Virus record (IMG/VR): IMGVR_UViG_3300030433_001760
Span: 1-25,070 of that record
Strand: one strand, 5' to 3'
DNA: 25,070 nt
Origin: a virus
Lineage: Duplodnaviria > Caudoviricetes
How positions within the stretch are numbered: the first letter of the stretch is position 1; every line of letters begins with the position of its first letter. The position numbers were made by a program, and so were the translations under genes. The notes under the pieces are model-generated. The model was not told where the DNA came from. It saw nothing but the letters and a program-made list of their open reading frames with translations, and searched no databases. Of the stretch, positions 1,652 through 20,968 are shown one piece after another.

Positions 1652-2931
1652 TATGATTCCTCCCTGATTGGGTGTCCGTTGCCAGCCAGTCTAATCGGAT
1701 GATTAGTTATAGCAGGCACTTGATCGTCAGCCAAAACAATATGGCCAAAGTAGTGTTGGTTAGGATACGGCACTGTAGTTAGTGTCATATCAACGTCATT
1801 ACCATTGAAAGCCATAGACCCAATGGCGGCATCATATACAGCAGAGCCATTATGTGCCTTCAGCTTTAGGTCAGCACCCGAGTAGCTGATCTCATCGGAT
1901 GTTCCAATTCCGTCAGCAGATACAGTACCTTGATGACTAGAAGTCGATCCACTACTGTTGTTACTGATGAAGCAATAGCTGTTGCCAGTCGAAGCAGGCT
2001 GAGTTACCTGAACACCAGTGCCCTGTGCGGTACACATGTGTGCTAGTGCAACCTGAGAAACATATCCTGTGTCAGTAGGACCACTGAAGGTCTCGCTGCT
2101 ATTGAGAGATATGTTGCCAACCCCAACCTTAGCCCTGATAGAGTCATCAATGGCTAGTAATACAGAGTCGTCATCTCCGGTGCTACCAGTAGTTGACATG
2201 GTAACAGAGTTAGTGCCCCAGCTACTTATGCTAGAGATCCAAGTCTGGCTATCCTGATGGATCTGACCAACCAAGTAACCACTCTCCATTCTCTGGCTGA
2301 CCTGCATGGTTGAAGCACCATGAGTTCCACCCTGAGCATACATGACCTGACTATTGCCAGACCTCTCAGCCATTCCCCAAGAGTAGATGTTTGTATCTGA
2401 CTCGGTCTGCCCACTGTTGTTCTGGCCAGCAGTGTGACCAAAGATAACATTAGGGTTAATGGAGAATGACTTAGTTCCAGAAGTAGAGCTACCTAGCTTT
2501 ATCATGTCGGCATTGACACCACCGAATATGATTGTCGTTGAAGGGACAAGGTAACTGGGGAACACCGTTCCTGTAGCTGTTTTTGTGAACCTGAGTCCAT
2601 CAGTTAACTGCTTTGCCTCTAAGGTTATAAAGCCTCGTAGGTAAACAGTGTCGTCGTCACTATAGTTCTGGAACCTCTTCATTTCAGAAGAGAAGCGATT
2701 GTCCAGAGCATACACACCAGAATTGTAAACCTTATAAGCACTGCCATCCCAAACGCCAGTGATGATCGACTCACCTGAATTGTTAGATGTAGCACCAGAG
2801 TTATAATTGTGGTAGCTAAGGAATGTCACAAACGCATCTACTTGGCCGAAGCCAGAGATAGTTGCGTCAAAGTTAGTTCCATTGGCCTGTGAGTTATCAA
2901 GGCCGTGAATGAGTGTTCCTATCTTGGACAT
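1651..2931 (-). CDS. Ser/Gly/Thr-rich beta-structured protein, putative virion adhesin or fibre
   Basis: 426-aa ORF with TAATG overlaps on both sides. Composition is typical of phage beta-rich structural proteins, and it lies next to the LamG gene. Confidence 0.65.
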   Translation of the reverse strand: MSKIGTLIHGLDNSQANGTNFDATISGFGQVDAFVTFLSYHNYNSGATSNNSGESIITGVWDGSAYKVYNSGVYALDNRFSSEMKRFQNYSDDDTVYLRGFITLEAKQLTDGLRFTKTATGTVFPSYLVPSTTIIFGGVNADMIKLGSSTSGTKSFSINPNVIFGHTAGQNNSGQTESDTNIYSWGMAERSGNSQVMYAQGGTHGASTMQVSQRMESGYLVGQIHQDSQTWISSISSWGTNSVTMSTTGSTGDDDSVLLAIDDSIRAKVGVGNISLNSSETFSGPTDTGYVSQVALAHMCTAQGTGVQVTQPASTGNSYCFISNNSSGSTSSHQGTVSADGIGTSDEISYSGADLKLKAHNGSAVYDAAIGSMAFNGNDVDMTLTTVPYPNQHYFGHIVLADDQVPAITNHPIRLAGNGHPIREES

Positions 2932-3533
2932 TATACACTCCAGTTGTTAGCAATCGCCTGTACTGCTTGAGCCCAGACCATTGGGTCTGCTTCTACTGAA
3001 TCCATAAGTGGTGCTATGTTAGCATTGTAAGCCTCAGTCCACTTTTCTATCTGCTGCATGTGTGCCTCATAGTTAGCAGCGTCAACTGCTTCCTGTGCAA
3101 CACGTGCATCTTCTTCTGCAATGGCGTCTGCGATGTCTTGCTCGGATATAACTCCGTGGCGAAGACCTCCACCAAGTGCAATAACCTTGTCGCTCTGTTC
3201 CTGAGTGATAACACCAGCAATAACAAGTCCAGCGAGAAGTGATGAACACTTGAGTGCCCACTCAGGCTTATCGCTTTCGATGTGTACGCTGCGGATCTTG
3301 TTCAGGTGACGAAGAAGCTCAGCAACTCCTTCACCTAGCTCACCGCCTAACTCAACAAGAGCAGGGATAGGCCCAGACCAGTTTCCAGTGATCTCATCTC
3401 TCCAAGCAAGTCCTTCATCACCAAGCAGGTTCTCAAGAGCCTGCAGGTCAATAGGATTGCCAGTAAGCGAAGACAACAGTGCTGCCTTTTCTGCGTTTGG
3501 CATATCGCCTAGTGCGTTGATTTCTACAATCAT
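2931..3533 (-). CDS. Hypothetical helical acidic protein (possible fibre-associated or chaperone protein)
   Basis: 200-aa ORF with AAGGA SD, coupled to the next gene by TAATG. Confidence 0.7.
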   Translation of the reverse strand: MIVEINALGDMPNAEKAALLSSLTGNPIDLQALENLLGDEGLAWRDEITGNWSGPIPALVELGGELGEGVAELLRHLNKIRSVHIESDKPEWALKCSSLLAGLVIAGVITQEQSDKVIALGGGLRHGVISEQDIADAIAEEDARVAQEAVDAANYEAHMQQIEKWTEAYNANIAPLMDSVEADPMVWAQAVQAIANNWSV

Positions 3534-3543
3534 CGTTTAATCC

Positions 3544-3762
3544 TTATAGTTGTTTAAGTTCTTCAGCATTGGGGTCAATTCTAACCAATGCCATCCAAAG
3601 TTGTCTCCTGTCATCATCGCATTCTTCTGCACGCTTTACCAACTCTTCGTGGGTCTTTCGCTGGGCATGGTATAGGTGTGCCACTGCACCGCCAAGTGCG
3701 GTGAGACCCCCTAGTAGTGCCGTGGTGAGGCTTATGGGCTCTACCTGTGCAAAGTGTTCCAT
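3544..3762 (-). CDS. Small single-TM plus coiled-coil protein (holin-like)
   Basis: Hydrophobic ISLTTALLGGLTALGGAVAHLY followed by charged helix RKTHEELVKRAEECDDDRRQLW. The holin role is an inference. Confidence 0.6.
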   Translation of the reverse strand: MEHFAQVEPISLTTALLGGLTALGGAVAHLYHAQRKTHEELVKRAEECDDDRRQLWMALVRIDPNAEELKQL

Positions 3763-3764
3763 GA

Positions 3765-3911
3765 TTAACTCTCTTTGTTCTTGTTGTCGTTCTTGTTGTC
3801 TTCTAGCAGCCGGTTAAGGACATCCTTAACCTTCAGTTTAAGCTGTGATTCAAGCCTCTTGGACGAATCCGCAACAAGTTTTTTTAACATCTCTAAGTGT
3901 TTGTCTTTCAT
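3765..3911 (-). CDS. 48-aa basic coiled-coil protein (below the ORF-track cutoff)
   Basis: MKDKHLEMLKKLVADSSKRLESQLKLKVKDVLNRLLEDNKNDNKNKES. GGAGG SD, ATGA overlap with the peptidase stop, and it fills the gap exactly. Confidence 0.75.
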   Translation of the reverse strand: MKDKHLEMLKKLVADSSKRLESQLKLKVKDVLNRLLEDNKNDNKNKES

Positions 3912-4645
3912 GATTCCTCCCTAGACTTGACCGCCCTAATTGCGACTGACTCAAAAGGTACGGCCTTGTCGCCCCAGATGATTCCGTACCCGCCTTTAAG
4001 ACCACCACCGCTCCAGCCAGTTCCCCAGCTATTAGCAATGATGAGACCAACGTTACCGGACCTGTTCATTGTCACACCTAATCCCAACACCAAATGCTTC
4101 CACCAGCTAAACGCTAGTGTCACAGGTGATGGTCGCTCACCGATTAGTGCACTGACAACTCCGTCAAAGTCACGGCGTCCTAGCTCCTCGAACTCAACAA
4201 GCTTATGCCTAGATGCTTCACGCTTGACCTTATCGCTCCAGTTGTTGGTCTTGGTGAACTCTGGCAAGTACTTGTGAGTCGGGATGCCAAACTTTTCCAC
4301 TCCCTTGCAAGCCTCAACTGCGAAACCGCCTTGGCGTCTTCCGCCCTTGATCTTGTAAGCAAGTGCAAAGGCATTGAGGTCAACATGACCAACGCCTTGT
4401 ATCGTATATGCAGTCTTCACTGCTCCCACTGTCCCATATGCCCAGCAATACGGCCAAGCTTTCTGGTTCATCACAGGCTGTTCGTGCTTGTGCCAGTGGT
4501 ATGGTTGTATTTTTAAGTGATTAAGGTATTTGATCCTCTCACGCCATTGAGAACGTGGCACTCGAGCCCCAGAGAACTCAGGGTATGCTGAGAACTCTGG
4601 AACGTCGGTGTATGATCTCTCAATGTATCCTTTACCGAATGTCAT
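3908..4645 (-). CDS. Papain-like (C1 family) cysteine peptidase
   Basis: NQKAWPYCWAYG (oxyanion Gln and catalytic Cys), WKHLVLGLG (His) and IANSWGTGW (Asn) match the papain QxxxxxCW / H / NSWG signature. Confidence 0.88.
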   Translation of the reverse strand: MTFGKGYIERSYTDVPEFSAYPEFSGARVPRSQWRERIKYLNHLKIQPYHWHKHEQPVMNQKAWPYCWAYGTVGAVKTAYTIQGVGHVDLNAFALAYKIKGGRRQGGFAVEACKGVEKFGIPTHKYLPEFTKTNNWSDKVKREASRHKLVEFEELGRRDFDGVVSALIGERPSPVTLAFSWWKHLVLGLGVTMNRSGNVGLIIANSWGTGWSGGGLKGGYGIIWGDKAVPFESVAIRAVKSREES

Positions 4646-5403
4646 TGAGTAGCCTTTCTAATTCTTCTGATGTTATTGGCATGTCAACTGATGATGACTT
4701 ACCGTTTCCATAAACGTAAACGACCGAGGGGGAACTTCCTCTTTCGCTGCGACTCTTTCTTATCGCATCGGCAAGGTGAGACTCCACATTGTCCACAGAC
4801 TGACTCGTCTGGTACAATCTCCTCTCGATCCCCATCGACGATAACTTCTCCTCGATCATCAAGGATCGGATCAAAGTCGAGATCTCCGGTGTGACCGTCT
4901 CGTTCGTCAAGAACAGGACGGCCTCCGGCCTCCCCCCGTGGGAGTACCTCCACTACGTCGTCAACATGGTCAACGATGAAGTCCCAAGCGGTCGATAGGT
5001 GACCACCAGCCCAGAGGGCACCGGCAAGGATCGTGGCAGCTAAAGGCTTCCAGTTCCACTCGCCTTCGACCTTCTCAGCGTTCTTCCAGTTCTTGGCAGC
5101 TTCTACGGCTTTCTGAGAGCTCTTCCGCAAAAGACGACCCAACCATCGGGCCCCTTCCTCTACGTGCGGGAGCAGCCCGCTGAGCACGCCTATCGTCAAT
5201 ATTCCGATCAGTTGTACGAAGGACACGGCACTGGCAAGCAAAGTTGCCCCAAGTGCGGCCCATTGTGCATCGCCAAACCCTTCCTGCGGGGGGTTAGCAA
5301 ATGCGTGTAGCCACCCGTCGCGGTACAAGACCCAGCCGAACCAGATGGTCGCTAGCCCAACCACAAATTGGAAGGACTTGTTATCTTTTAGATTTTTCCA
5401 CAT
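4632..5403 (-). CDS. Multi-pass membrane protein with a soluble C-terminal domain, apparently frameshifted (+1) at a G6 run at 4932-4937
   Basis: ATG 5403 with GGAG SD and about three hydrophobic segments. Removing one G joins ...VVEVLPRG to RPEAVLFLTNETVTPEISTLIRS... (ORF 4632..4910), giving 256 aa that ends overlapping the peptidase start. Confidence 0.6.
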
Positions 5404-5405
5404 TT

Positions 5406-5681
5406 TTACTCTCCAAGTAATTCGTCTATCTTTTTGTTGATCCACTTCTCAATAAGCTTCATTGCTACTTTGAGCATTAGGCTAATGAGGATGGACGTTA
5501 AAATGCTTCCATACTGCTGTCCGAATCCATTCCTGAGTGCCTCGATGTCTTCACGAGTCCACTTCTCTGCGAGCTTCTTGTGACTGTCGATGTGCTTGGC
5601 CGACTTGTAGTACGAACCAGACTTCTCGAAGTTGTCACGAGCGATCTGCTCGGCTTGACGCTTCTTTCTTTTACTCAGCAT
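5406..5681 (-). CDS. Small basic protein with a C-terminal hydrophobic/amphipathic helix
   Basis: 91 aa containing YGSILTSILISLMLKVAMKLIEKWI. Overlaps the end of the protease gene and abuts the next gene. Confidence 0.75.
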   Translation of the reverse strand: MLSKRKKRQAEQIARDNFEKSGSYYKSAKHIDSHKKLAEKWTREDIEALRNGFGQQYGSILTSILISLMLKVAMKLIEKWINKKIDELLGE

Positions 5682-6363
5682 GTTCTAGTCTCCGTAGTAG
5701 CTGATGAATGCACGCATTTCGGATTGAATAGGTGTGAATGTAGTCGGTTGCGTGGATAACCCCTACGAGCTCACCGGCGTCATTGAACAGAGCTCCACCG
5801 GAGTCACCGGGGATCGCTGGGTTCGTTGACTGGACACAGTTTGGCTGGCTTCCGCCAATGTTTATCGTGAAGTCAGAGACGGTGCCGCTCCAGATTCGTC
5901 GCTCGCAACCCTCTTTGTTATCACTGTAAGACACGCCGAAGCCAACGCCGTGTACGGTATCTCCCTCTGAGACGTCGTCCCAAGCTACTGGTGCAGCAGG
6001 GGTTATGACTTTCTCAGGCTTGTTAGCCTTGATGATCACAAGGTCGTATTCTACGTTGTAGATCTTCACGTAGCCGCTGTAGATGACCTGTAGGTGGTGA
6101 TCCACAATAGCGATTGGCTGGTCTTCTGCACCCTCTACGACGTGATGAGCGGACACGAAAAGGCCATCACCAATGTGAGTTGCACTGCCAAAGCCATAGG
6201 CAGACTGGATTCCAACGACACTTTCAGCCGCTTGGATAGATTGTTCGGTGGGGACCACTGGGGCGATAGATGCCTTGGTCAGGTAGAATGCGTTGTCTAC
6301 GTAGATGCCAGCGGGAGTCAGGAATGCGGCAATTAGTAGTAAATCTCGAATAAGCTTCTTCAT
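5671..6363 (-). CDS. Trypsin-like (S1) serine protease with an N-terminal signal/TM anchor
   Basis: Triad motifs SAHHVV (His), YDLVII (Asp), GDSGGALF (Ser). Start moved to ATG 6363 (GAGGA SD; MKKLIRDLLLIAAFLTPAG). Confidence 0.9.
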   Translation of the reverse strand: MKKLIRDLLLIAAFLTPAGIYVDNAFYLTKASIAPVVPTEQSIQAAESVVGIQSAYGFGSATHIGDGLFVSAHHVVEGAEDQPIAIVDHHLQVIYSGYVKIYNVEYDLVIIKANKPEKVITPAAPVAWDDVSEGDTVHGVGFGVSYSDNKEGCERRIWSGTVSDFTINIGGSQPNCVQSTNPAIPGDSGGALFNDAGELVGVIHATDYIHTYSIRNACIHQLLRRLEHAE

Positions 6364-6391
6364 AGGTAGATCCTCGCTGTGTTGTGTGTGG

Positions 6392-6439
6392 GCAAGAGGG
6401 GGGACGCCTCTACTTTTGGGCTGTCCCCCTAGCTCCTGC
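6392..6439 (-). other. 48-nt GC-rich stem-loop in the leader of the protease cassette
   Basis: GCAGGAG-cta-GGGGGAC-a-GCC-(10 nt)-GGC-GTCCCCC-CTCTTGC, with no U-tract after it. Confidence 0.65.
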
Positions 6440-6450
6440 GATAATCTTTT

Positions 6451-6459
6451 ACTATACCA
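6451..6459 (-). promoter_or_regulatory. Putative extended -10 promoter (TG-G-TATAGT)
   Basis: Intergenic, between the helicase stop and the protease start. No clear -35. Confidence 0.5.
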
Positions 6460-6484
6460 TACCACCCCCTAAAAGTGGTAAGGT

Positions 6485-8353
6485 TTAGAACGGACAGTCA
6501 TCGTTCTCCTCAAAACTGAGGAAAACTCGCTCAGGCTTGTCTGCCTTGAACTTCTCTGCCACTATTCTACGCCATTTCCCATCCCGGTCAACAAGAATTA
6601 TGAAAGGTTCTCTGATTCCGCCCTTTTCAATCAATTCCTGTGCCTCAACGATGGTCTCTGGTACTAGACACTTAGACCGCTTGTTCCACCAAGTCACTGC
6701 CTTCTTCTGGGCAAAGCCTTCATGTTCAAAGCAGACCCATTCCATAAATCGGCCTTTTAGCTCCACATCTTTACCCGTAATCTCACATTTACTTCTTTTT
6801 TTGCAAGTATATGTGACCCGGAGAGTATGTAGCTTTCCTTCCTCTTTTGGCACGTGTCTAACGTAACTCACCTCATCGACCTCCCACCACTCAGGCTCTG
6901 GCTTGTCCTCGACAAACACTGAGTCCCGAAGCGTCTTACCCTCTTGCAGAGCCTTCTCGATTCTGTTACGGCAGTTGCCACAGATCTCGTCAGTCTCAGC
7001 AATGATGGCGTTGCACAAGTCACCGCTCTCGAGCGTAGACTTACACCGCTTGGCTAGGAAGTCATAGTCGCATGTCGTCAGTAGGTCCAGCATGGTGCCG
7101 CACTTACCTTCGCTCAATGGCCTTTGCTGATTGCATGATGGACACTCCTTGGACCTCATGAGAAGCCCGCAGTCACCACAACGATCAGACTCAGCCTTGA
7201 CAACGCTCTTGCACTCCTTGCACAGCAGGATCTTGTTGTCCTGATCCTTCATGCCGAAGTCCTCCTCGAGTGGGCAACCGTGCTCCTCGAAGTTTCCGCC
7301 GAAGTCCAGAACCAAGAAGTCCTCCTTGCCTTCACACCTACGCATCCCCCTTCCCAGTATCTGGTAGAAGAGGCCAGCACTCTTGGTGGCCCGGCAGATA
7401 GCAATGGCGTCCACGTTTGGTGCGTCAAAGCCAGTCGTCAAGACCCCTACGTTGATCAGGAAGAACCTCTTGCTGGCCGGAGACACGAATGCCTTGAGCA
7501 CAGCGGCTCTCTCTGTCTTGTTGGTAGTTCCAGTCACGGTAGTCACTAGATCACCCGTAGAAGCCCTCAGGATAGCCTGTAACGCCTCCGCGTGAGCAAC
7601 ACTGGTCGCAAACACCAAGACACGGTTTCGGCCCTCAGTGAGTGCAATGATCTCCTTAGCGTTGGACTCAACCTTCTCGATGAAAGCCTCTGAGAGCTCC
7701 TCAGGAGCGTACTCACCGCCTCTCACCTTGATGCCACTGGTATCGACCTGATTGACGCCCGGAGTTGACCAGCCAGTGATATGGCCATCCTCTAGCATAC
7801 GCCTCAGGGGGACGCTGTAGCAGCACTCGTCGAACAGTTTGTCCTCACCATGGATCATGCCTGAGCCTAGCCTGTACGGGCTAGCAGTAAGCCCAAAGAC
7901 ACGCATCTTAGCGTTACGCTCTCTGAGCTCATTGATGACCTGACCGTACTGACTGTCATCAGTCTGAGGGATCTGGTGGCACTCGTCGATCAGGATACAG
8001 TTGATCATTGGCAGATGCTTCACAGCATTGACCACTGACTGCACTGTAGCGAAGATCACGCTGGTGTCAGTTTCCTTACGGCTCAAGGAGGCAGAGTAGA
8101 CCCCTGCCTTGATTCCTGTGAACTGCTCAAACCTCTCAGCGTTCTGTTGCACTAGCTCCCCCTGTCTGCACAGCACTAGCACCTTCTTCTTGGCACCGAC
8201 TGCACGACGGCAGAACTCAGCTATCACTACGCTTTTGCCGGAACCGGTCGGTAAGTGCACATAGGCGTGCTCTGATGGCTTTGATGACTTTGCAAAGCCA
8301 ACCATCGCATCGACGGCCCCGCTCTGGTAGTCTCTCGGCTTGAACGCTGTCAT
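6485..8353 (-). CDS. Superfamily 2 DNA helicase, RadD/YejH-like, with zinc-ribbon insert
   Basis: RDYQ Q-motif, PTGSGKS Walker A, DECH, GLTASP, LTTGFD and QILGRGMR motifs, followed by LDFGGN and a 12-Cys region. Confidence 0.93.
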   Translation of the reverse strand: MTAFKPRDYQSGAVDAMVGFAKSSKPSEHAYVHLPTGSGKSVVIAEFCRRAVGAKKKVLVLCRQGELVQQNAERFEQFTGIKAGVYSASLSRKETDTSVIFATVQSVVNAVKHLPMINCILIDECHQIPQTDDSQYGQVINELRERNAKMRVFGLTASPYRLGSGMIHGEDKLFDECCYSVPLRRMLEDGHITGWSTPGVNQVDTSGIKVRGGEYAPEELSEAFIEKVESNAKEIIALTEGRNRVLVFATSVAHAEALQAILRASTGDLVTTVTGTTNKTERAAVLKAFVSPASKRFFLINVGVLTTGFDAPNVDAIAICRATKSAGLFYQILGRGMRRCEGKEDFLVLDFGGNFEEHGCPLEEDFGMKDQDNKILLCKECKSVVKAESDRCGDCGLLMRSKECPSCNQQRPLSEGKCGTMLDLLTTCDYDFLAKRCKSTLESGDLCNAIIAETDEICGNCRNRIEKALQEGKTLRDSVFVEDKPEPEWWEVDEVSYVRHVPKEEGKLHTLRVTYTCKKRSKCEITGKDVELKGRFMEWVCFEHEGFAQKKAVTWWNKRSKCLVPETIVEAQELIEKGGIREPFIILVDRDGKWRRIVAEKFKADKPERVFLSFEENDDCPF

Positions 8354-8441
8354 TGGTGTCTCCCCAATCTATAGTGTCGTAATTAGTTCTATACGTAACT
8401 CTGTTGGCAACTCGGTTGCCGTCGCCTTTACCATTGGCCAT
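8217..8441 (-). CDS. Small phage protein (GKGD..R.......NYD.I.W type), overlapping the helicase start
   Basis: GAGGA SD. The N-terminal 30 aa fill the intergenic gap and resemble short phage proteins I recall. The C-terminal part overlaps the helicase in another frame. Confidence 0.5.
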   Translation of the reverse strand: MANGKGDGNRVANRVTYRTNYDTIDWGDTNDSVQAERLPERGRRCDGWLCKVIKAIRARLCALTDRFRQKRSDS

Positions 8442-8577
8442 TTAGTTTATCCTCAAGTTCTAGTAGTTCACGCTTGTTAAGCTTCCATACATAGACCTCA
8501 TCGTCATCACCACGGATGACCCAGTAGCGTGCTTTGCCGCCACTGTTGCTACACAGCACACACCAGCTATTAAGCAC
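8428..8577 (-). CDS. Hypothetical protein (about 49 aa)
   Basis: GTG start overlapping the upstream stop. Sequence ...ARYWVIRGDDDEVYVWKLNKRELLELEDKL. Start position is uncertain. Confidence 0.5.
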   Translation of the reverse strand: MLNSWCVLCSNSGGKARYWVIRGDDDEVYVWKLNKRELLELEDKLNGQW

Positions 8578-8824
8578 CTTCACCGGATGAAGGATGATAT
8601 TGATTTTCTGTTGTGCCGTCGCTATGAGAGACTGTGACATGGATGTTTCCAAACTGATTAGTAAGTGTAATGAACTCGCCTGTATGCATTTTAACTCGCA
8701 ACATGGCGAAGTCAAGGTCATAAAACGGTAGTGACTCTAAGCATTCGGACCAAGCAACATCGCTACATTGGTAATCGGTAACTTGGTAAAACAGATCCAG
8801 TAGGATGTCCTTGTTTCCTAACAT
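8570..8824 (-). CDS. Hypothetical protein (84 aa)
   Basis: ATG 8824 with GGAG SD directly after a terminator. The longer start in the track would cross the hairpin. Confidence 0.7.
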   Translation of the reverse strand: MLGNKDILLDLFYQVTDYQCSDVAWSECLESLPFYDLDFAMLRVKMHTGEFITLTNQFGNIHVTVSHSDGTTENQYHPSSGEGA

Positions 8825-8834
8825 AACATACTCC

Positions 8835-8865
8835 AAAAAGAAAGGCCATCCCCGGAGAGATGGCC
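8835..8865 (-). terminator. Rho-independent terminator
   Basis: GGCCATCTC-TCCG-GGGATGGCC followed by TTTCTTTTT, downstream of the SSB-like gene. Confidence 0.8.
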
Positions 8866-8892
8866 CGTAAAACCAAACACACAACAACTCGA

Positions 8893-9366
8893 TTAGAAAG
8901 CGTCAAACTCGTCAGCGGCGTCAGCAGCAGGACGGTCATTGTCTTGACCCTCGTACTGGTTGACCCAGCTTACTCGGTTCTTGTCAGCGTAACCGTTAGT
9001 TCCTTCTTCGATCTTAACTCCGCCCCATACGTGAGCGTTGACAAGCTGTGAAGGATCGCTGAGCTTATCGTGGCCATTGGCGACAAGAAGCTTGCTTAAC
9101 TGACGCTCTGAGATCTCTTTTGATCGCTCGTTGCCACCAAGCATGTAGATCTCGAAGATCCGACGATTAGCGTGAGGCTGACCGTCTTCAATTCTGTACT
9201 GGACAGAGACGTAAGGGTTTCCAGTCTTGGACTCTCTGACCTCAGCACCAACTACGCTCAGGTGATACTCACCCGGAGGAACTGGGCTGTTGTCATAGTT
9301 AGGCTTGGAAGCCTCTGCTGCGGTCTCTGCATTGATGCCAGCGAAAAGGTTTGAAAAATCGGACAT
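8893..9366 (-). CDS. DUF669-family ssDNA-binding protein
   Basis: PPGEYHLSV...SKTGNPY...YRIEDG...RRIF motif, acidic C-terminal tail ending DEFDAF, and position directly after a Sak4-like gene. Confidence 0.85.
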   Translation of the reverse strand: MSDFSNLFAGINAETAAEASKPNYDNSPVPPGEYHLSVVGAEVRESKTGNPYVSVQYRIEDGQPHANRRIFEIYMLGGNERSKEISERQLSKLLVANGHDKLSDPSQLVNAHVWGGVKIEEGTNGYADKNRVSWVNQYEGQDNDRPAADAADEFDAF

Positions 9367-9370
9367 AGTT

Positions 9371-10078
9371 CTATTCTCCTAGAATAAGTTTTGGGAAATC
9401 TTTCTGATCAATCGTAGCGGGCAAGTCAACGCGACTCTTGGCTACATAACTCGGATGAGGTTGACTGTTGAGGATACGCCTCCCCGTAGTCGTTGCGATG
9501 CCCTTGGTACGGCCAAAGTCACCTTCCTCTTGTCGCACGAACACTTCGTGCTTGGCATGGACAATGATGTCTGCCCATTCCATAACTCTCTCGCACGCTT
9601 TCTTGCTGAGCTTAGGACGGATGACGTCCCACTGGTTCCCAGCAATGTCTTCAGCTTTGCGTACCTCTTGGTGAGCGAGAAGGATTACTGTCTTGCCTGC
9701 TTCGATGCATTTATCGAAAGCGGATAATACTTTACAGAACCTTCTGGCTACCTCAACGATACCCTTACCGTAGTCAGTCTTAAAATTCTCCTCTCTTAGT
9801 GCTTCATCAATTAACTTCTCAAACCAGTCGGCAGAGTCAAGAACTACTGTCTCGTAGTCTGACTGTGCACATTCGGCAGCCGCTTTAAGTACGTCCACGG
9901 CCTTGGTGAGGTTGACTCTAGTACAGTCAATCTCGTTGGTTCCGTCCTCAGTTGCTAGGAAGATAGCCTTTGGGAACTTGCTTGCACAGGTTGATTTACC
10001 TGTAGCATGTTCGCCGTAGATCATGATCTTCTTAGGCTTAGTGATCTTCCCTGATACTGCATTACTCAGAATCGACAT
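9371..10078 (-). CDS. AAA_24 / Sak4-like P-loop ATPase (single-strand annealing recombinase)
   Basis: IYGEHATGKST Walker A, TEDG, TVVLDSADW Walker B, ILLAH, EWADII and AKSR motifs. Confidence 0.88.
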   Translation of the reverse strand: MSILSNAVSGKITKPKKIMIYGEHATGKSTCASKFPKAIFLATEDGTNEIDCTRVNLTKAVDVLKAAAECAQSDYETVVLDSADWFEKLIDEALREENFKTDYGKGIVEVARRFCKVLSAFDKCIEAGKTVILLAHQEVRKAEDIAGNQWDVIRPKLSKKACERVMEWADIIVHAKHEVFVRQEEGDFGRTKGIATTTGRRILNSQPHPSYVAKSRVDLPATIDQKDFPKLILGE

Positions 10079-10484
10079 TAAATAAGATCCTCGCTTCTAG
10101 TGCCCGTTCCGCTATCTCCTCAGAGCTCAGCAAGGGGAACTCGTTGCTTGCTGAGTTGTCCTTAATCTCATTGAGCTCATAGTGATTGCCGTCTTCTGCT
10201 ATCAGCATGAACTCGTTCCAACGCTTTAACTGTGACGTCTCGGCTTTGGTCTTATCAGTATAACAGAAGACTACTCTATCGCAAAATGTTAACCCAATTC
10301 GTTTGGTGGCCTTGGTTTCCAGCGATTCGATAGGGCACTCAAAAAAGTTTTTCAGGCGTGTAGCAAACTTCTTCGATGGCCGTGCGTCCATAACTGTGGA
10401 CTGTGCGGCTGCAACGTTAAGGTGGTGCTGCACTTCCTCAAGGTAGTTCTCACTGTTAATAACGATCTTCAGTAAACTGCTCAT
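10062..10484 (-). CDS. Hypothetical protein (140 aa)
   Basis: ATG 10484 (MSSLLKIV) with GGAG SD and TAATG overlap with the upstream small gene. Confidence 0.7.
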   Translation of the reverse strand: MSSLLKIVINSENYLEEVQHHLNVAAAQSTVMDARPSKKFATRLKNFFECPIESLETKATKRIGLTFCDRVVFCYTDKTKAETSQLKRWNEFMLIAEDGNHYELNEIKDNSASNEFPLLSSEEIAERALEARILFNVDSE

Positions 10485-10636
10485 TAGTGTTTCTCCAATT
10501 CGTACCAAATAAAACCAATGTTCCCTACACTGTACGCCAGCCACACCAGAGCGTGAGGGTAATCTTTCTGGTGGACATTCACGGCGGCCTGTATCATATA
10601 ACAGACCGCCGGAATTGCAATCATCGCATAGTTCAT
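10484..10636 (-). CDS. 50-aa two-TM membrane protein (below the ORF-track cutoff)
   Basis: MNYAMIAIPAVCYMIQAAVNVHQKDYPHALVWLAYSVGNIGFIWYELEKH. ATGA overlap upstream and TAATG overlap downstream. Confidence 0.75.
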   Translation of the reverse strand: MNYAMIAIPAVCYMIQAAVNVHQKDYPHALVWLAYSVGNIGFIWYELEKH

Positions 10637-10902
10637 GGCTCAGGGTTCCATCCTTCTACTGCGTTGTACTTCTGCACGCTCTTGGCCCACGCCTTAGCGT
10701 CTTCAATGCCGTACTGCCTCTCGAACCATCCAATGTGCCGAGAGATGTACTCAGCAGACTTATGATCAGGGAAGCCCGTGATCTTGATGCCACGATACCA
10801 GACCTCTGCGGTGGCATCATTGTCTTTGCGGGGGAACCCTCCTACGCAGACCACGGTGGCTGGGTAGTTCTTAGCTCGTGAATGTGGTTGGATACCGCTC
10901 AT
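10633..10902 (-). CDS. Hypothetical protein (89 aa)
   Basis: AAGGAG SD and ATGA overlaps at both ends. Confidence 0.75.
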   Translation of the reverse strand: MSGIQPHSRAKNYPATVVCVGGFPRKDNDATAEVWYRGIKITGFPDHKSAEYISRHIGWFERQYGIEDAKAWAKSVQKYNAVEGWNPEP

Positions 10903-11111
10903 TTGTTTAACTCCTTAACTCGTGCTTGTGCGTTACGATCTGCCGCCTCTTCGGTGGCCCAGTTAGTTGGTGACTCTTCATGAAGCTCAGGCAACTCAAT
11001 GCCATGAGTCATTACGCAGTCGAAGTTATCTAGGATGTCGAAGGCCCAGCGGACCTTGCCATCGGTTCTCAAGAAGTTGTAGACCTTGTAGGAATACTGC
11101 TGCTTGCTCAT
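10899..11111 (-). CDS. Hypothetical protein (70 aa)
   Basis: GGAG SD and ATGA overlaps at both ends. Confidence 0.75.
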   Translation of the reverse strand: MSKQQYSYKVYNFLRTDGKVRWAFDILDNFDCVMTHGIELPELHEESPTNWATEEAADRNAQARVKELNK

Positions 11112-11332
11112 AGTGATCTCCAGTCGATAGGGTTACTAAACTTGTCGAACTCAATTCTAACACGCTGACCAACGTCTGGCAAGAGCAATCCGTCACTATT
11201 CCAGTCATTGATAAAATCTTTGAAGTAGTACCACTGACCGTTAGCCAGCTTGATGGCACCGTTGTCACGATCTATCCGAAGAGTCTTGACAACTGTTAAA
11301 GTCTCTGTCGTGTAAGTTACGTCGCTGTTCAT
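11108..11332 (-). CDS. Hypothetical protein (74 aa, small beta-rich/OB-like)
   Basis: GGGAG SD and coupling to the next gene. The fold is a guess. Confidence 0.7.
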   Translation of the reverse strand: MNSDVTYTTETLTVVKTLRIDRDNGAIKLANGQWYYFKDFINDWNSDGLLLPDVGQRVRIEFDKFSNPIDWRSL

Positions 11333-11403
11333 CTCTCACTCCCTATGATACGCTCTGATCTGATAATGTCAAGTACAATCTCTAAAGTTTCTGCTGCCTT
11401 CAC
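11329..11403 (-). CDS. 24-aa leader microprotein
   Basis: GGAGG-6nt-GTG start, MKAAETLEIVLDIIRSERIIGSER, stop overlapping the next ATG (ATGA). Confidence 0.55.
   Translation of the reverse strand: MKAAETLEIVLDIIRSERIIGSER
11345..11372 (-). promoter_or_regulatory. Sigma70-like promoter TTGACA-16-TATCAT
   Basis: Perfect -35 and 5/6 -10 match. It lies inside the 24-aa ORF. Confidence 0.5.
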
Positions 11404-11443
11404 TGCTTGCCTCCGTTGTGTTGTTGTTTCCTCTTATGCCTCT

Positions 11444-11471
11444 ATTATACAGACTTCGGGCCCCATGTCGA
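11444..11471 (-). promoter_or_regulatory. Sigma70-like promoter TCGACA-16-TATAAT with an AT-rich upstream element
   Basis: Perfect -10, 5/6 -35 match, T-rich tract upstream, located just after a terminator. Confidence 0.7.
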
Positions 11472-11492
11472 GGACAAAATAGAAAAAATCAC

Positions 11493-11523
11493 AAAAAAAG
11501 CCCAACTAATTTCTAGCTGGGCT
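11493..11523 (-). terminator. Rho-independent terminator
   Basis: AGCCCAGCTA-GAAAT-TAGTTGGGCT followed by a T-run, 10 nt after the SPFH stop. Confidence 0.85.
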
Positions 11524-11533
11524 CGTAACTCCT

Positions 11534-12049
11534 TTACTGTAAAAGACTTAGGGGAATGACTTGTTGTAGGTCTTCTACCTGAAAACTCACAAGTTCTATC
11601 CCATAGTAGTCTAATTCGGCGTGAATCTCATCAAAATACGTGTCACGCTCTATCAGTTCACTTAGGTGCGACCAGTTGTGGCCGCTAATCAAATCACAGA
11701 CAACACCGCGAATGAAGATGCTCGAGAGCTCCTCATAGCCCTCTGCCGCACGATCTCGGCAGAGCACTGGGTCAGTTATCTTAATGACGCTGGTGGCATT
11801 CACAGCCACGCTCCTGTCATCAGCGGTGGTCACTCGTTGTAGTCCACAGTCAATCGGGATCTCATTCTTTGGCAAGTACTCAACGTGAGTTAGTGCTGGA
11901 ATGAAGACAACCGGGTTAACTGTCTGCTTGGTGTGACCAAACCACCGATCAATGACCAACCACTCGTTGGTCTGCGGCCTGTGGGCTATCCTCGGCACAA
12001 GGGCGAAGAAGGGCTCCAGCAGGCCACTGATCAAATCGAATAGGCTCAT
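11534..12049 (-). CDS. SPFH / band-7 domain protein
   Basis: Contains LQRVTTADDRSVAVNATSVIKITDP and YYGIELVSFQVEDL. Start moved to ATG 12049 (ATGA overlap with the upstream gene). Confidence 0.8.
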   Translation of the reverse strand: MSLFDLISGLLEPFFALVPRIAHRPQTNEWLVIDRWFGHTKQTVNPVVFIPALTHVEYLPKNEIPIDCGLQRVTTADDRSVAVNATSVIKITDPVLCRDRAAEGYEELSSIFIRGVVCDLISGHNWSHLSELIERDTYFDEIHAELDYYGIELVSFQVEDLQQVIPLSLLQ

Positions 12050-12723
12050 AGTTTCATTGGCTCCACAATCGCTGTGCGGCCCTCTAGGATCACTCCACAG
12101 GACACTACGGGCTTCTGGCTGTACTTCTTGCCATACTCCATCTGAGCGTGCTTCCAGTCCGTTCCGCAGCCCACTTGGCAACCGAAGATGCGAGTCGATA
12201 AGTTGCAGTAGAACTCAACCCCAGCCTTGCTGTGGTGATGTCCTTGGACAACCGACTTGAACTCCGCTTTGGCGTTCAGGATCGCAGAAGCCTTGCCACG
12301 GTCACCGTGCTGGTAGATCACGTCATCAATGACAAGCTGATCAAACCTCTGGTGTACCTTCCACCGCTTAGGCAGTCCGAAGATAGCACCGAAGTCTCTC
12401 ATCATCGACTCAGGGATTCCAACCTCATCGCACCAGCGATACGGTAGTGCATCGTGGTTGCCAATCAGCAACTCTGCACTCGGGAACGCCTTAGTCAACT
12501 GCTTGACCTGTTTCATTGCCTTCTCGTATTCCTGCAAAGGATCTTTGAGTTGAGGCTTCTTCAGGTGGAACGATAGTGCAGCATTGTCAACAATGTCACC
12601 GATGTGGACGACCTTGTTGCAGTTCCATCGCTTGTGGACATCTCGCAGAAAATCCACGTAGCCGTCAACCATAGCGGGACAGTGGGTATCTCCGATGACC
12701 AATACACGTTTCTTACTCGGCAT
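12046..12723 (-). CDS. Calcineurin-like metallophosphoesterase
   Basis: Motifs GDTH, GDIVD, GNHD, HG and GHHH. Likely start is ATG 12723 (MPSKKRVLVIGD). Confidence 0.9.
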   Translation of the reverse strand: MPSKKRVLVIGDTHCPAMVDGYVDFLRDVHKRWNCNKVVHIGDIVDNAALSFHLKKPQLKDPLQEYEKAMKQVKQLTKAFPSAELLIGNHDALPYRWCDEVGIPESMMRDFGAIFGLPKRWKVHQRFDQLVIDDVIYQHGDRGKASAILNAKAEFKSVVQGHHHSKAGVEFYCNLSTRIFGCQVGCGTDWKHAQMEYGKKYSQKPVVSCGVILEGRTAIVEPMKL

Positions 12724-12724
12724 A

Positions 12725-13195
12725 TTAAACTCTCTCATTAAAAGCGGAATTGAAGGGAACTCTGTAAACGTCAATCAGAACCTTGGGGCCCTGATCACGA
12801 ATGGAATCATCTTGTCTCCCAAGCACCCATTCGATGTACTTAGGTGAATCGTCTTCAGCAAGTCCTGCCTCAATCAAGGCGTCTTGGATTTGCTTATAAT
12901 TACCACGGAGCACAGAATCTGCGTCCCATAGGCGTTCTCTCTTGCCAAGGATACGCCAGACCACAAGTCCTAGCTTCTCATCCTTGCCGAAATGGATCGC
13001 CCTCGTCCAATCTGAGAGCTTCTGGTACACCCCTGACTCTTTTGTCGCGGGTGTCCAAACTCGTGCGTCAGCGACCGCCTCCGTGGCCGTACGACGCTCT
13101 TTATGGCTACCTGACCAATGACGACCTTGGCCTTGGTTGTTGTTCTTCAGCTTCATCGGGATCTCAATCTCACCGATGTGTATGCCGTCAAGCAT
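12725..13195 (-). CDS. RusA-like Holliday junction resolvase / endonuclease
   Basis: DADSVLRGNYKQIQDALIEAGLAEDD matches the RusA DxDN..K...DAL...G...DD pattern (Asn replaced by Ser). GGAGG SD. Confidence 0.75.
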   Translation of the reverse strand: MLDGIHIGEIEIPMKLKNNNQGQGRHWSGSHKERRTATEAVADARVWTPATKESGVYQKLSDWTRAIHFGKDEKLGLVVWRILGKRERLWDADSVLRGNYKQIQDALIEAGLAEDDSPKYIEWVLGRQDDSIRDQGPKVLIDVYRVPFNSAFNERV

Positions 13196-20391: not shown

Positions 20392-20642
20392 TACATAATT
20401 CCTAAGCTTTGAATATGACTTAATGCTTCCTCAGGCGTGTTTGATTCTGCCTTTGGATTCTTCTCGTCTCGCTCTAGTAATTCGTAGGCTATCCATTGGT
20501 CTAAGACCGAGGGGCTTATAGTATTCATCCAATGGACTGGGTCATCAATACCCAGTCTTTGGCATATCAAGAAGGCCCACCTCAGGCGATGATTTGACCT
20601 GAAGTGTTCAATCATCCTTTCTACTCGCCCTTGGCGTTTTTT
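20391..20642 (-). CDS. Tail assembly chaperone extension (gpT-like), reached by -1 frameshift
   Basis: The -1 frame from A-AAA-AAC reads RQGRVERMIEHFRSNHRLRWAFLICQRLG...LDQWIAYELLE. The track start ATG is at 20615. Confidence 0.8.
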   Translation of the reverse strand, partial: KKRQGRVERMIEHFRSNHRLRWAFLICQRLGIDDPVHWMNTISPSVLDQWIAYELLERDEKNPKAESNTPEEALSHIQSLGIM

Positions 20643-20968
20643 TCTTCAAGGAATGAATCGTTGAAGTCGCTAATAGCATCGACCAATGAGTCAAGCACTC
20701 CGCTTTCTAAAGCGAGCAAATCCTTGACGTCACCCTCAGTAAAGAGGTTCTTGCCTGTCTCGTCACACAGTTGATCAACAACCATGTTGACTCGAAGCTT
20801 CATGCGAGCGTCCTCGGACTTCTTATCCTTGTCGCTCCAGAGGTCAGCAAGACGCTTTGATCGCTGGAACTCGGTAAGTGGTTTAACCCAGATCTTACCG
20901 TGCTCTTTAGCATCTACTTCAACCGGCTTTGGCTTTTTTGCCAATAAAGATTGTTTAGTTAAAGTCAT
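20621..20968 (-). CDS. Tail assembly chaperone (gpG-like)
   Basis: Start at ATG 20968 with GAGGT SD. MTLTKQSLL...IWVKPLT...LCDETGKNLFT pattern, with a slippery site at the 3' end. Confidence 0.85.
   Translation of the reverse strand: MTLTKQSLLAKKPKPVEVDAKEHGKIWVKPLTEFQRSKRLADLWSDKDKKSEDARMKLRVNMVVDQLCDETGKNLFTEGDVKDLLALESGVLDSLVDAISDFNDSFLEEKNAKGE
20636..20642 (-). other. Programmed -1 ribosomal frameshift heptamer A AAA AAC
   Basis: X-XXY-YYZ heptamer in the correct phase, four sense codons before the TAG. The -1 frame is open into the next ORF. Confidence 0.85.

Follow-up and report, generated by a model that had tools for sequence, protein, structure and literature searches.

A phage cassette with a papain-like peptidase and a membrane protein predicted to undergo ribosomal frameshifting: a possible exit module

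The DNA analysed here, IMG/VR record IMGVR_UViG_3300030433_001760 (hereafter the window), is a stretch of 25,070 bases from a virus of the Caudoviricetes; it is the complete available record, and absence of a gene within it alone proves nothing. It holds part of a siphovirus, with genes for a ClpP-type protease, capsid, tail and tape measure (Pfam, PHROGs). After these morphogenesis genes come RusA-like, phosphoesterase, SPFH, Sak4, SSB and helicase genes, then the cassette that is the subject of this report, and then fibre-like genes. Half or more of the sampled words of the window were present in three marine metagenome runs, one of which may be its source. A sequence-only reading had described the cassette as six coupled genes in a lysis-like position. 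All six were found to be present, tightly coupled and on the minus strand. The features of the cassette and its surroundings, in the order of transcription and with the names used below, are as follows (aa, amino acids; nt, nucleotides; TM, transmembrane; SD, Shine-Dalgarno).

6451-6459, minus strand: extended -10-like promoter element, from the sequence; no good -35 in the window.
6392-6439, minus strand: leader hairpin, from folding against shuffles; 17 pairs kept in three loci.
5671-6363, minus strand: S1, trypsin-like protease with a signal/TM N-terminus, accessory; Pfam Trypsin_2, E 1.6e-13.
5406-5681, minus strand: protein A of 91 aa, with an amphipathic helix at the C-terminus; clusters in 18 of 28 IMG/VR loci.
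4699-5403, minus strand: protein B, zero-frame product of 234 aa, a membrane part and a tail with a basic end; ATG at 5403; 14 other clusters.
4947-4951, minus strand: SD-like GGAGG, 9 nt 5' of the slip site.
4930-4937, minus strand: predicted slip site GG GGG GAG (GG GGA GAG in L032 and L037), from sequence comparison.
4893-4923, minus strand: predicted stimulatory hairpin of 31 nt, 6 nt 3' of the slip site.
4632-4931, minus strand: Cys-free thioredoxin-like domain, encoded in the +1 (= -2) frame relative to B; aligns to the in-frame domains of relatives.
3908-4645, minus strand: C1, papain-family cysteine peptidase without signal peptide; Pfam, catalytic set and predicted fold.
3765-3911, minus strand: 48-aa helical peptide, in the slot that holds an exported-protein gene in non-shifting relatives.
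3544-3762, minus strand: 72-aa TM and coiled-coil protein, holin candidate; in 13 of 28 IMG/VR loci.
2931-3533, minus strand: 200-aa protein, downstream and before the fibre-like genes; in 13 of 28 IMG/VR loci, no family found (Pfam, PHROGs).

From the IMG/VR set, 28 loci were recovered with the C1 alignment, several of them near-duplicates or loci that end early, and their gene neighbours were grouped by BLAST clustering. A B-family gene lies upstream of C1 in 22 of the 28 loci; protein A was found in 18, the TM-coiled-coil and 200-aa proteins in 13 each, and S1 in one. The first three of these counts bear out the conserved co-occurrence that had been proposed for the cassette. A core of two proteases was not upheld, as S1 is missing from 27 of the 28 loci and also from L037, which belongs to the window's own clade (three distinct loci at the DNA level, namely the window, L032 and L037; L036 is a copy of the window). 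In all DNA fetched, S1 adjoins the cassette only in the window with its copy, L032, L008/G001, L031 and the prophage G367; in the last of these it is joined to a CxxC domain bearing a basic tail. As judged from gene content, the conserved core is the 91-aa protein, B, C1 and usually the TM-coiled-coil protein, with S1 accessory. The complete siphovirus G001, which has terminal repeats and is colinear with the window, carries the cassette. It is also found amid other morphogenesis genes in G004 (which has a 3628-aa protein) and G005, in G367, whose contig has an rRNA gene, and just before methylase, terminase and portal genes in L025, with no fibre gene. By gene order, the cassette is thus one that recurs in unrelated phage architectures (G001, G004, G367, L025). 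A single-sequence scan of viruses returned nothing, and GenBank phages gave one weak match.

C1 was assigned to the papain family by Pfam (Peptidase_C1, E 2.8e-5, 24.7 bits against a cut-off of 20.7). The catalytic set Q61, C67, H184 and N205 was invariant in 23 of 23 aligned homologues, and the AlphaFold2 model (predicted local distance difference test, pLDDT, 93.8) matched cathepsin and papain rows in Foldseek (E 1.6e-10, TM-score 0.6-0.7). The earlier description of a papain-like protease with Q/C/H/N and without a signal peptide agrees with this invariant set and predicted fold. The family counts 682 clusters (50% identity) with a cut-off of E<=1e-10, and relaxing this to E<=1e-3 brings the number to 1346. 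None of the 16 long members was found to have a peptidoglycan-binding domain; eight of the 16 gave intein or LAGLIDADG matches, and in all four members read the insert lies at the motif of the catalytic Cys or Asn. Going by what is generally known of inteins, such a position suggests that C1 is a needed gene. In three relatives C1 is fused to the thioredoxin-like domain of B, behind a signal peptide in P0158, a TM segment in P0173 and a lipobox in L071 (recognised by eye). Because of these exported or anchored fusions C1 likely acts outside the cytoplasm or in the envelope, as had been suggested. The predicted complex of C1 and the B domain scored 0.87 and the one control 0.72, which does not decide whether the two pair. 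As a separate observation, inteins, some with LAGLIDADG endonucleases, occur at two sites in the phage protease (P0048, P0098, P0102, P0140 and others).

The single 250-aa B protein of relatives aligns to the window in two frames. The sequence-only reading had a multi-TM protein with a soluble domain here; both parts are present, but the domain lies in another frame than B, and the conserved recoding signal at the break had not been reported. No indel was present at the slip site in contigs of three DNA runs (X1, X2, X3) from two studies. On this ground, and because the zero-frame tail is kept in 13 other clusters, an assembly error at the G run was rejected; a simple pseudogene was rejected as well, the +1 frame being open and conserved in L032 and L037. 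A search with the zero-frame product gave 17 proteins; of these, 14 in addition to that of the window have 226-234 aa, and 13 keep the tail. The remaining matches are P0036 (226-234 aa), which crosses into the domain frame, and two in-frame forms. In 13 clusters 35-40 of 40 positions were compatible with the +1 frame (26 in P0036), where shuffles gave about 12, and the thioredoxin-like domain was called as a separate open reading frame (ORF) in seven clusters, at 60-66% identity. A codon-position test for selection on the tail was not decisive, the differences being nearly even over the three positions. The other frame in part determines the tail residues of B, and in L007, which has no slip site, that frame is open for >130 codons. 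The AlphaFold2 model of the window's domain had a pLDDT of 94.8 and a middling best structural match (Z 8.0, root-mean-square deviation 2.8, 89 aligned); most of the top 50 rows for the B domain were of thioredoxin fold. The CxxC motif is absent from the window's domain, which has no Cys at all.

In the window, L032 and L037 both frames are open around one layout: GGAGG, 9 nt, GG GGR GAG, 6 variable nt and the 31-nt hairpin. A -2 slip retains Gly and Glu pairing in L032 and L037; in the window the Gly tRNA alone re-pairs at -2, and therefore a +1 shift is also possible. In a second clade (L002, L039, L006, L042, L046) the domain is in frame, a G GGA AAG heptamer, the one that lambda uses, stands at the same place, and the -1 frame is open for 75-76 codons, so that the default and shifted B products would be swapped relative to the window's clade. 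The B anchor motif was found in 22 loci (repeat fetches and loci lacking the motif left out), and collapsing five near-identical pairs gave 17 distinct loci, eight with a slip site and nine without. The hairpin had -17 to -22 kcal/mol in 8/8 slip loci against -3.6 to -7.5 in 9/9 others, and the SD-like motif was present in 8/8 and 1/9, respectively. Between the two slip clades two hairpin pairs swap C-G to G-C, in a codon-anchored register chosen by hand (automatic DNA alignments gave other registers for the two clades). The two slip types form separate clades, and a single origin was not rejected (p-AU 0.43).

Initiation of the thioredoxin-like domain at a start codon of its own, or slippage during transcription, would also account for the frame break. 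In L037 an ATG stands 4 nt 3' of the G-rich site in the +1 frame, six of the seven separately called domain ORFs begin near there, and the window has a run of six G. The window itself has no start codon at that position, however, and L032 has ACG; the hairpin covers the candidate start, and the domain as a product of its own would lack an export signal. The G run is interrupted in L032 and L037, and an in-phase -1 heptamer, a feature with a background of 10 in 127,337 codon positions, is present in the second clade. We regard this explanation of the break as rather improbable, and a programmed ribosomal frameshift in B as very probable from the comparison of sequences.

The other frame of B may correspond to a separate gene elsewhere. 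Directly 3' of C1, a signal-peptide gene was present in 9/9 non-shifting loci, eight with a basic end and the ninth (L008) a thioredoxin-like protein; no such gene followed C1 in the five shifting loci in which that DNA was read (the window, L037, L002, L039, L006). Over the last 14 residues the charge is +4 to +7 for the frameshift tails (+7 in the window) and +6 to +8 for the complete separate genes, against a background of 4.7% of 443 ORFs at +5 or more; the unused frame of the non-shifting L003 also ends at +6. The overlapping frame of the slip loci thus appears, on these comparisons, to stand in for the separate exported basic-tail gene.

Regarding the start of the cassette, the promoter proposed earlier was only partly sustained. 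A consensus scan of the window called no site in the intergenic stretch, with counts at chance (5 vs 3.3), but the extended -10-like element is there, and at the matching position both L032 and L037 show TTGACA together with a -10-like hexamer. The leader hairpin did stand: the 136-nt leader (6355-6490) was more stable than 200 of 200 shuffles (z -3.0), and of the 17 retained pairs four are changed on both sides. Long and stable leader structures (-61 to -87 kcal/mol, no shuffle baseline) were also seen upstream of cassettes without S1 (L002 8800-8990, L006 8790-8990, L009 8830-9020, L018 8560-8830). The signal- or TM-anchored trypsin-like protease described earlier is likewise present, S1 having a hydrophobic N-terminus and, as read from the sequence, H74, D107 and S188 in their motifs. 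Neither protein A nor the 72-aa protein, which has one TM segment, gave a family in Pfam, PHROGs or Atlas searches; the G001 gene in the 72-aa slot had weak hol-like and Rz-like PHROG matches (E 5e-4 to 5e-3). An open frame similar to that of the 48-aa peptide is present in L037, and L002 and L006 have shorter helical frames of which the start is not clear.

Lysins were searched for at the profile level, with G005 outside the scan. The 38 ORFs of the window gave no lysin family in Pfam or PHROGs, and a lipobox scan (simple pattern, ATG starts only) was negative, consistent with the earlier statement that no lysozyme, amidase, transglycosylase or lipobox spanin is recognisable there. An endolysin elsewhere in related genomes would have spoken against a proteolytic lysis system; in the complete, colinear G001 no stand-alone lysin was found among 65 ORFs (Pfam) or 39 ORFs (PHROGs). 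The same was true of G004 in 60 of 67 ORFs (PHROGs) or 19 ORFs (Pfam), and in G367 no lysin was found in 77 of 114 ORFs (Pfam), with short and opposite-strand ORFs and the far prophage end outside the scan. Three genome matches were obtained: a contig of a Pirellulaceae metagenome-assembled genome (MAG) with A, a split B and C1, another bacterium, and a Gammaproteobacteria MAG contig. In the phylum of the Pirellulaceae MAG, to which that search was limited, 2 of 401 genomes matched at E<=1e-10; the prophage G367 lies in a genome from this phylum. The planctomycete host suggested by the sequence-only reading is considered likely from these homologues.

Based on the above, the cassette may be an exit module in which C1 takes the part of an endolysin by cutting an envelope protein, and B shifts frame to give two products; we put the probability of this at roughly 0.45. 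The cassette would be transcribed from its own host-type promoter. B would sit in the inner membrane, its C-terminus facing outwards, as suggested by the positive-inside rule and by split relatives with one TM segment before the domain. Most ribosomes would stay in the frame of B and make the anchor with the basic tail, and a fraction would slip -2 (or +1) at 4930-4937 and make the anchor with the thioredoxin-like domain; in the L002/L006 clade a -1 shift would give these products in reverse. C1, having no signal, may get out through lesions due to the 72-aa and/or 91-aa proteins; the thioredoxin-like domain, its fusion partner in three relatives, may hold or activate it. Aided by S1 where present, C1 would then cut a load-bearing protein layer, and the basic tail (a separate exported gene in non-shifting relatives) might act on the outer membrane or sacculus. 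Taken jointly, the topology, the export of C1 via a holin, the partnership of C1 with the domain, the substrate and lysis seem somewhat better than an even bet; an envelope protein as the substrate of C1, taken by itself, is a tentative assignment a little short of even.

Three other functions of the cassette were considered. C1 may be a new peptidoglycan peptidase, making the block an ordinary holin-endolysin-outer-membrane cassette of unrecognised parts. Papain-fold CHAP/NlpC enzymes are known lysins (PMC10318531), planctomycetes possess peptidoglycan (PMC4432640), and searches of BFVD matched C1-like folds in phage proteins named peptidoglycan-binding (E 4e-9) and N-acetylmuramidase, so that the substrate may be peptidoglycan. 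The best solved matches of C1 are, however, cathepsin/papain C1A enzymes and not CHAP/NlpC, its partners are thioredoxin-like domains and trypsin, and the long family members have no peptidoglycan-binding domain. We consider this quite unlikely. Maturation of the adjacent fibre or other virion proteins, which the sequence-only reading had offered as its alternative, appears more improbable still: in many loci the cassette is followed by the 200-aa gene and fibre-like genes, and in G367 a cadherin-domain protein of 1598 aa is encoded two genes further, but in L025 the cassette precedes methylase-terminase-portal with no fibre gene, exported and lipoprotein forms of C1 do not fit cytoplasmic assembly, and a ClpP-type protease is present.

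The cassette might instead serve envelope remodelling or superinfection exclusion in infection or lysogeny, cleaving receptors or surface proteins with no lysis. The host-type promoter, the exported proteases and thioredoxin folds and the SPFH gene in the same genomes are in keeping with such a function, and contigs of RNA runs span parts of the cassette, which is no proof of transcription or timing. Against this, superinfection-exclusion and remodelling modules are usually patchy, whereas the cassette recurs in every architecture examined; it also attracts inteins, and the complete G001 would be left without any lysis candidate. This function is unlikely, though less so than either of the other two.

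Several points weigh against the interpretation as an exit module, the peptidoglycan of planctomycetes and the BFVD matches among them. L028 has C1 without the cassette. The promoter has a host sigma-70-like look and follows the replication genes, a poor fit to a strictly late gene. Profile searches miss divergent lysins, and many G001 ORFs are without a family; the 3628-aa protein of G004 has a weak match to a PHROG labelled endolysin (E 2.7e-7). The anticorrelation of slip site and separate gene had a Fisher p of 5e-4 by locus and 0.067 by lineage, with two slip lineages only, and the zero-frame tails have a low helical moment and are not clearly amphipathic helices. The host evidence consists of distant homologues (~27-36% identity), and one of the three genome matches is gammaproteobacterial.

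Like the lambda S-R-Rz/Rz1 cassette, the block is compact, with small membrane proteins around one hydrolase, and it stands before the terminase in L025. Unlike it, there is no muralytic family and, in the window, no lipobox, and the hydrolase is a C1 peptidase. Rz and Rz1 are two products from overlapping frames, an arrangement that the two frames of B recall, but the second frame of B would be reached by the predicted shift and not by a separate lipoprotein start. Compared with the C1A peptidases (procathepsins, bromelain), C1 shares the fold and the Q/C/H/N residues; it differs in its 15-21% identity, in being encoded by a phage, in having no signal peptide and in its pairing or fusion with a thioredoxin-like domain devoid of Cys.

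A proposed analogue of the basic tail of B is the disruptin gp28 of phiKT, a cationic peptide of a spanin-less phage (10.1101/515445). It differs in being a 56-aa cytosolic amphipathic peptide, whereas the tail here, of ~14 basic residues, is carried by a membrane anchor or preceded by a signal peptide; by the disruptin criteria, tail charges were +4 to +8, and the helical moment was low in the frameshift tails. Programmed shifts are described for E. coli dnaX (-1) and for tail chaperones (-1 in lambda G/GT, -2 in Mu; PMC5009743). In both, as predicted for B, two products share an N-terminus and a slip site is accompanied by a 3' stem-loop and an upstream SD-like element; dnaX in some species also has reversed default and shifted products (PMC5009743). 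Interference by SD-like elements (PMC10885494) and a shorter spacer favouring a -2 shift (PMC3458567) have been reported. B differs from these genes in being a membrane/envelope gene, in that both products have long alternative C-termini and in that the extra frame apparently replaces a separate gene. A literature search of titles and the starts of abstracts, with subscription papers mostly outside it, gave none on such a block or on a frameshift in such a gene; the recoding switch in B is apparently unreported.

Further observations were made in the surroundings of the cassettes. In the window, replication/recombination genes (6485-13195) lie between the tail genes and the cassette with its fibre-like genes, on the same strand, and the order in G001 is identical. 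Among them is the SPFH/Band 7 gene (11534-12181), which G001 has too; SPFH/Band 7 proteins often partner membrane proteases. The tail assembly chaperone gene ends in an in-phase A AAA AAC heptamer (20621-20660, minus strand) with a 74-aa frame right downstream, likely the usual chaperone -1 shift, which would make this a phage with two recoding sites. In G001 (L055 3381-5093) a 570-aa fusion joins a class II glutamine amidotransferase-like domain to a gamma-glutamyl cyclotransferase, and in G367 (L066 2269-3027) a prophage-borne PEP-CTERM surface protein lies upstream of the cassette. At the place of the 3628-aa gene of G004, no long ORF is listed for G005 (L059 1-10200), perhaps because the frame does not close before the stretch ends. 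In the Pirellulaceae MAG contig (L030 3702-4619) receiver-like and PAS-like ORFs follow the cassette (by eye).

According to PMC13450696 and PMC10632474, the composition of the planctomycete sacculus is unclear and P. limnophila can do without peptidoglycan genes; Cys-rich YTV proteins are a subject of PMC10632474. It is conceivable, although we think it doubtful, that planctomycete phages use no muralytic enzyme to exit and instead digest a protein sacculus with proteases. Some would tune a protease-docking against a membrane-active basic anchor by a frameshift that absorbed a separate gene, and a one-base change would later have flipped the default. The B gene offers a compact, directly testable case of recoding outside the tail chaperones, in which one site would shift -1 in one clade and -2/+1 in the other, with the products swapped. 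The C1 family is large, with the 682 clusters given above, and if C1 has been selected to break a layer of the sacculus, its substrate would name a load-bearing component of the planctomycete envelope.

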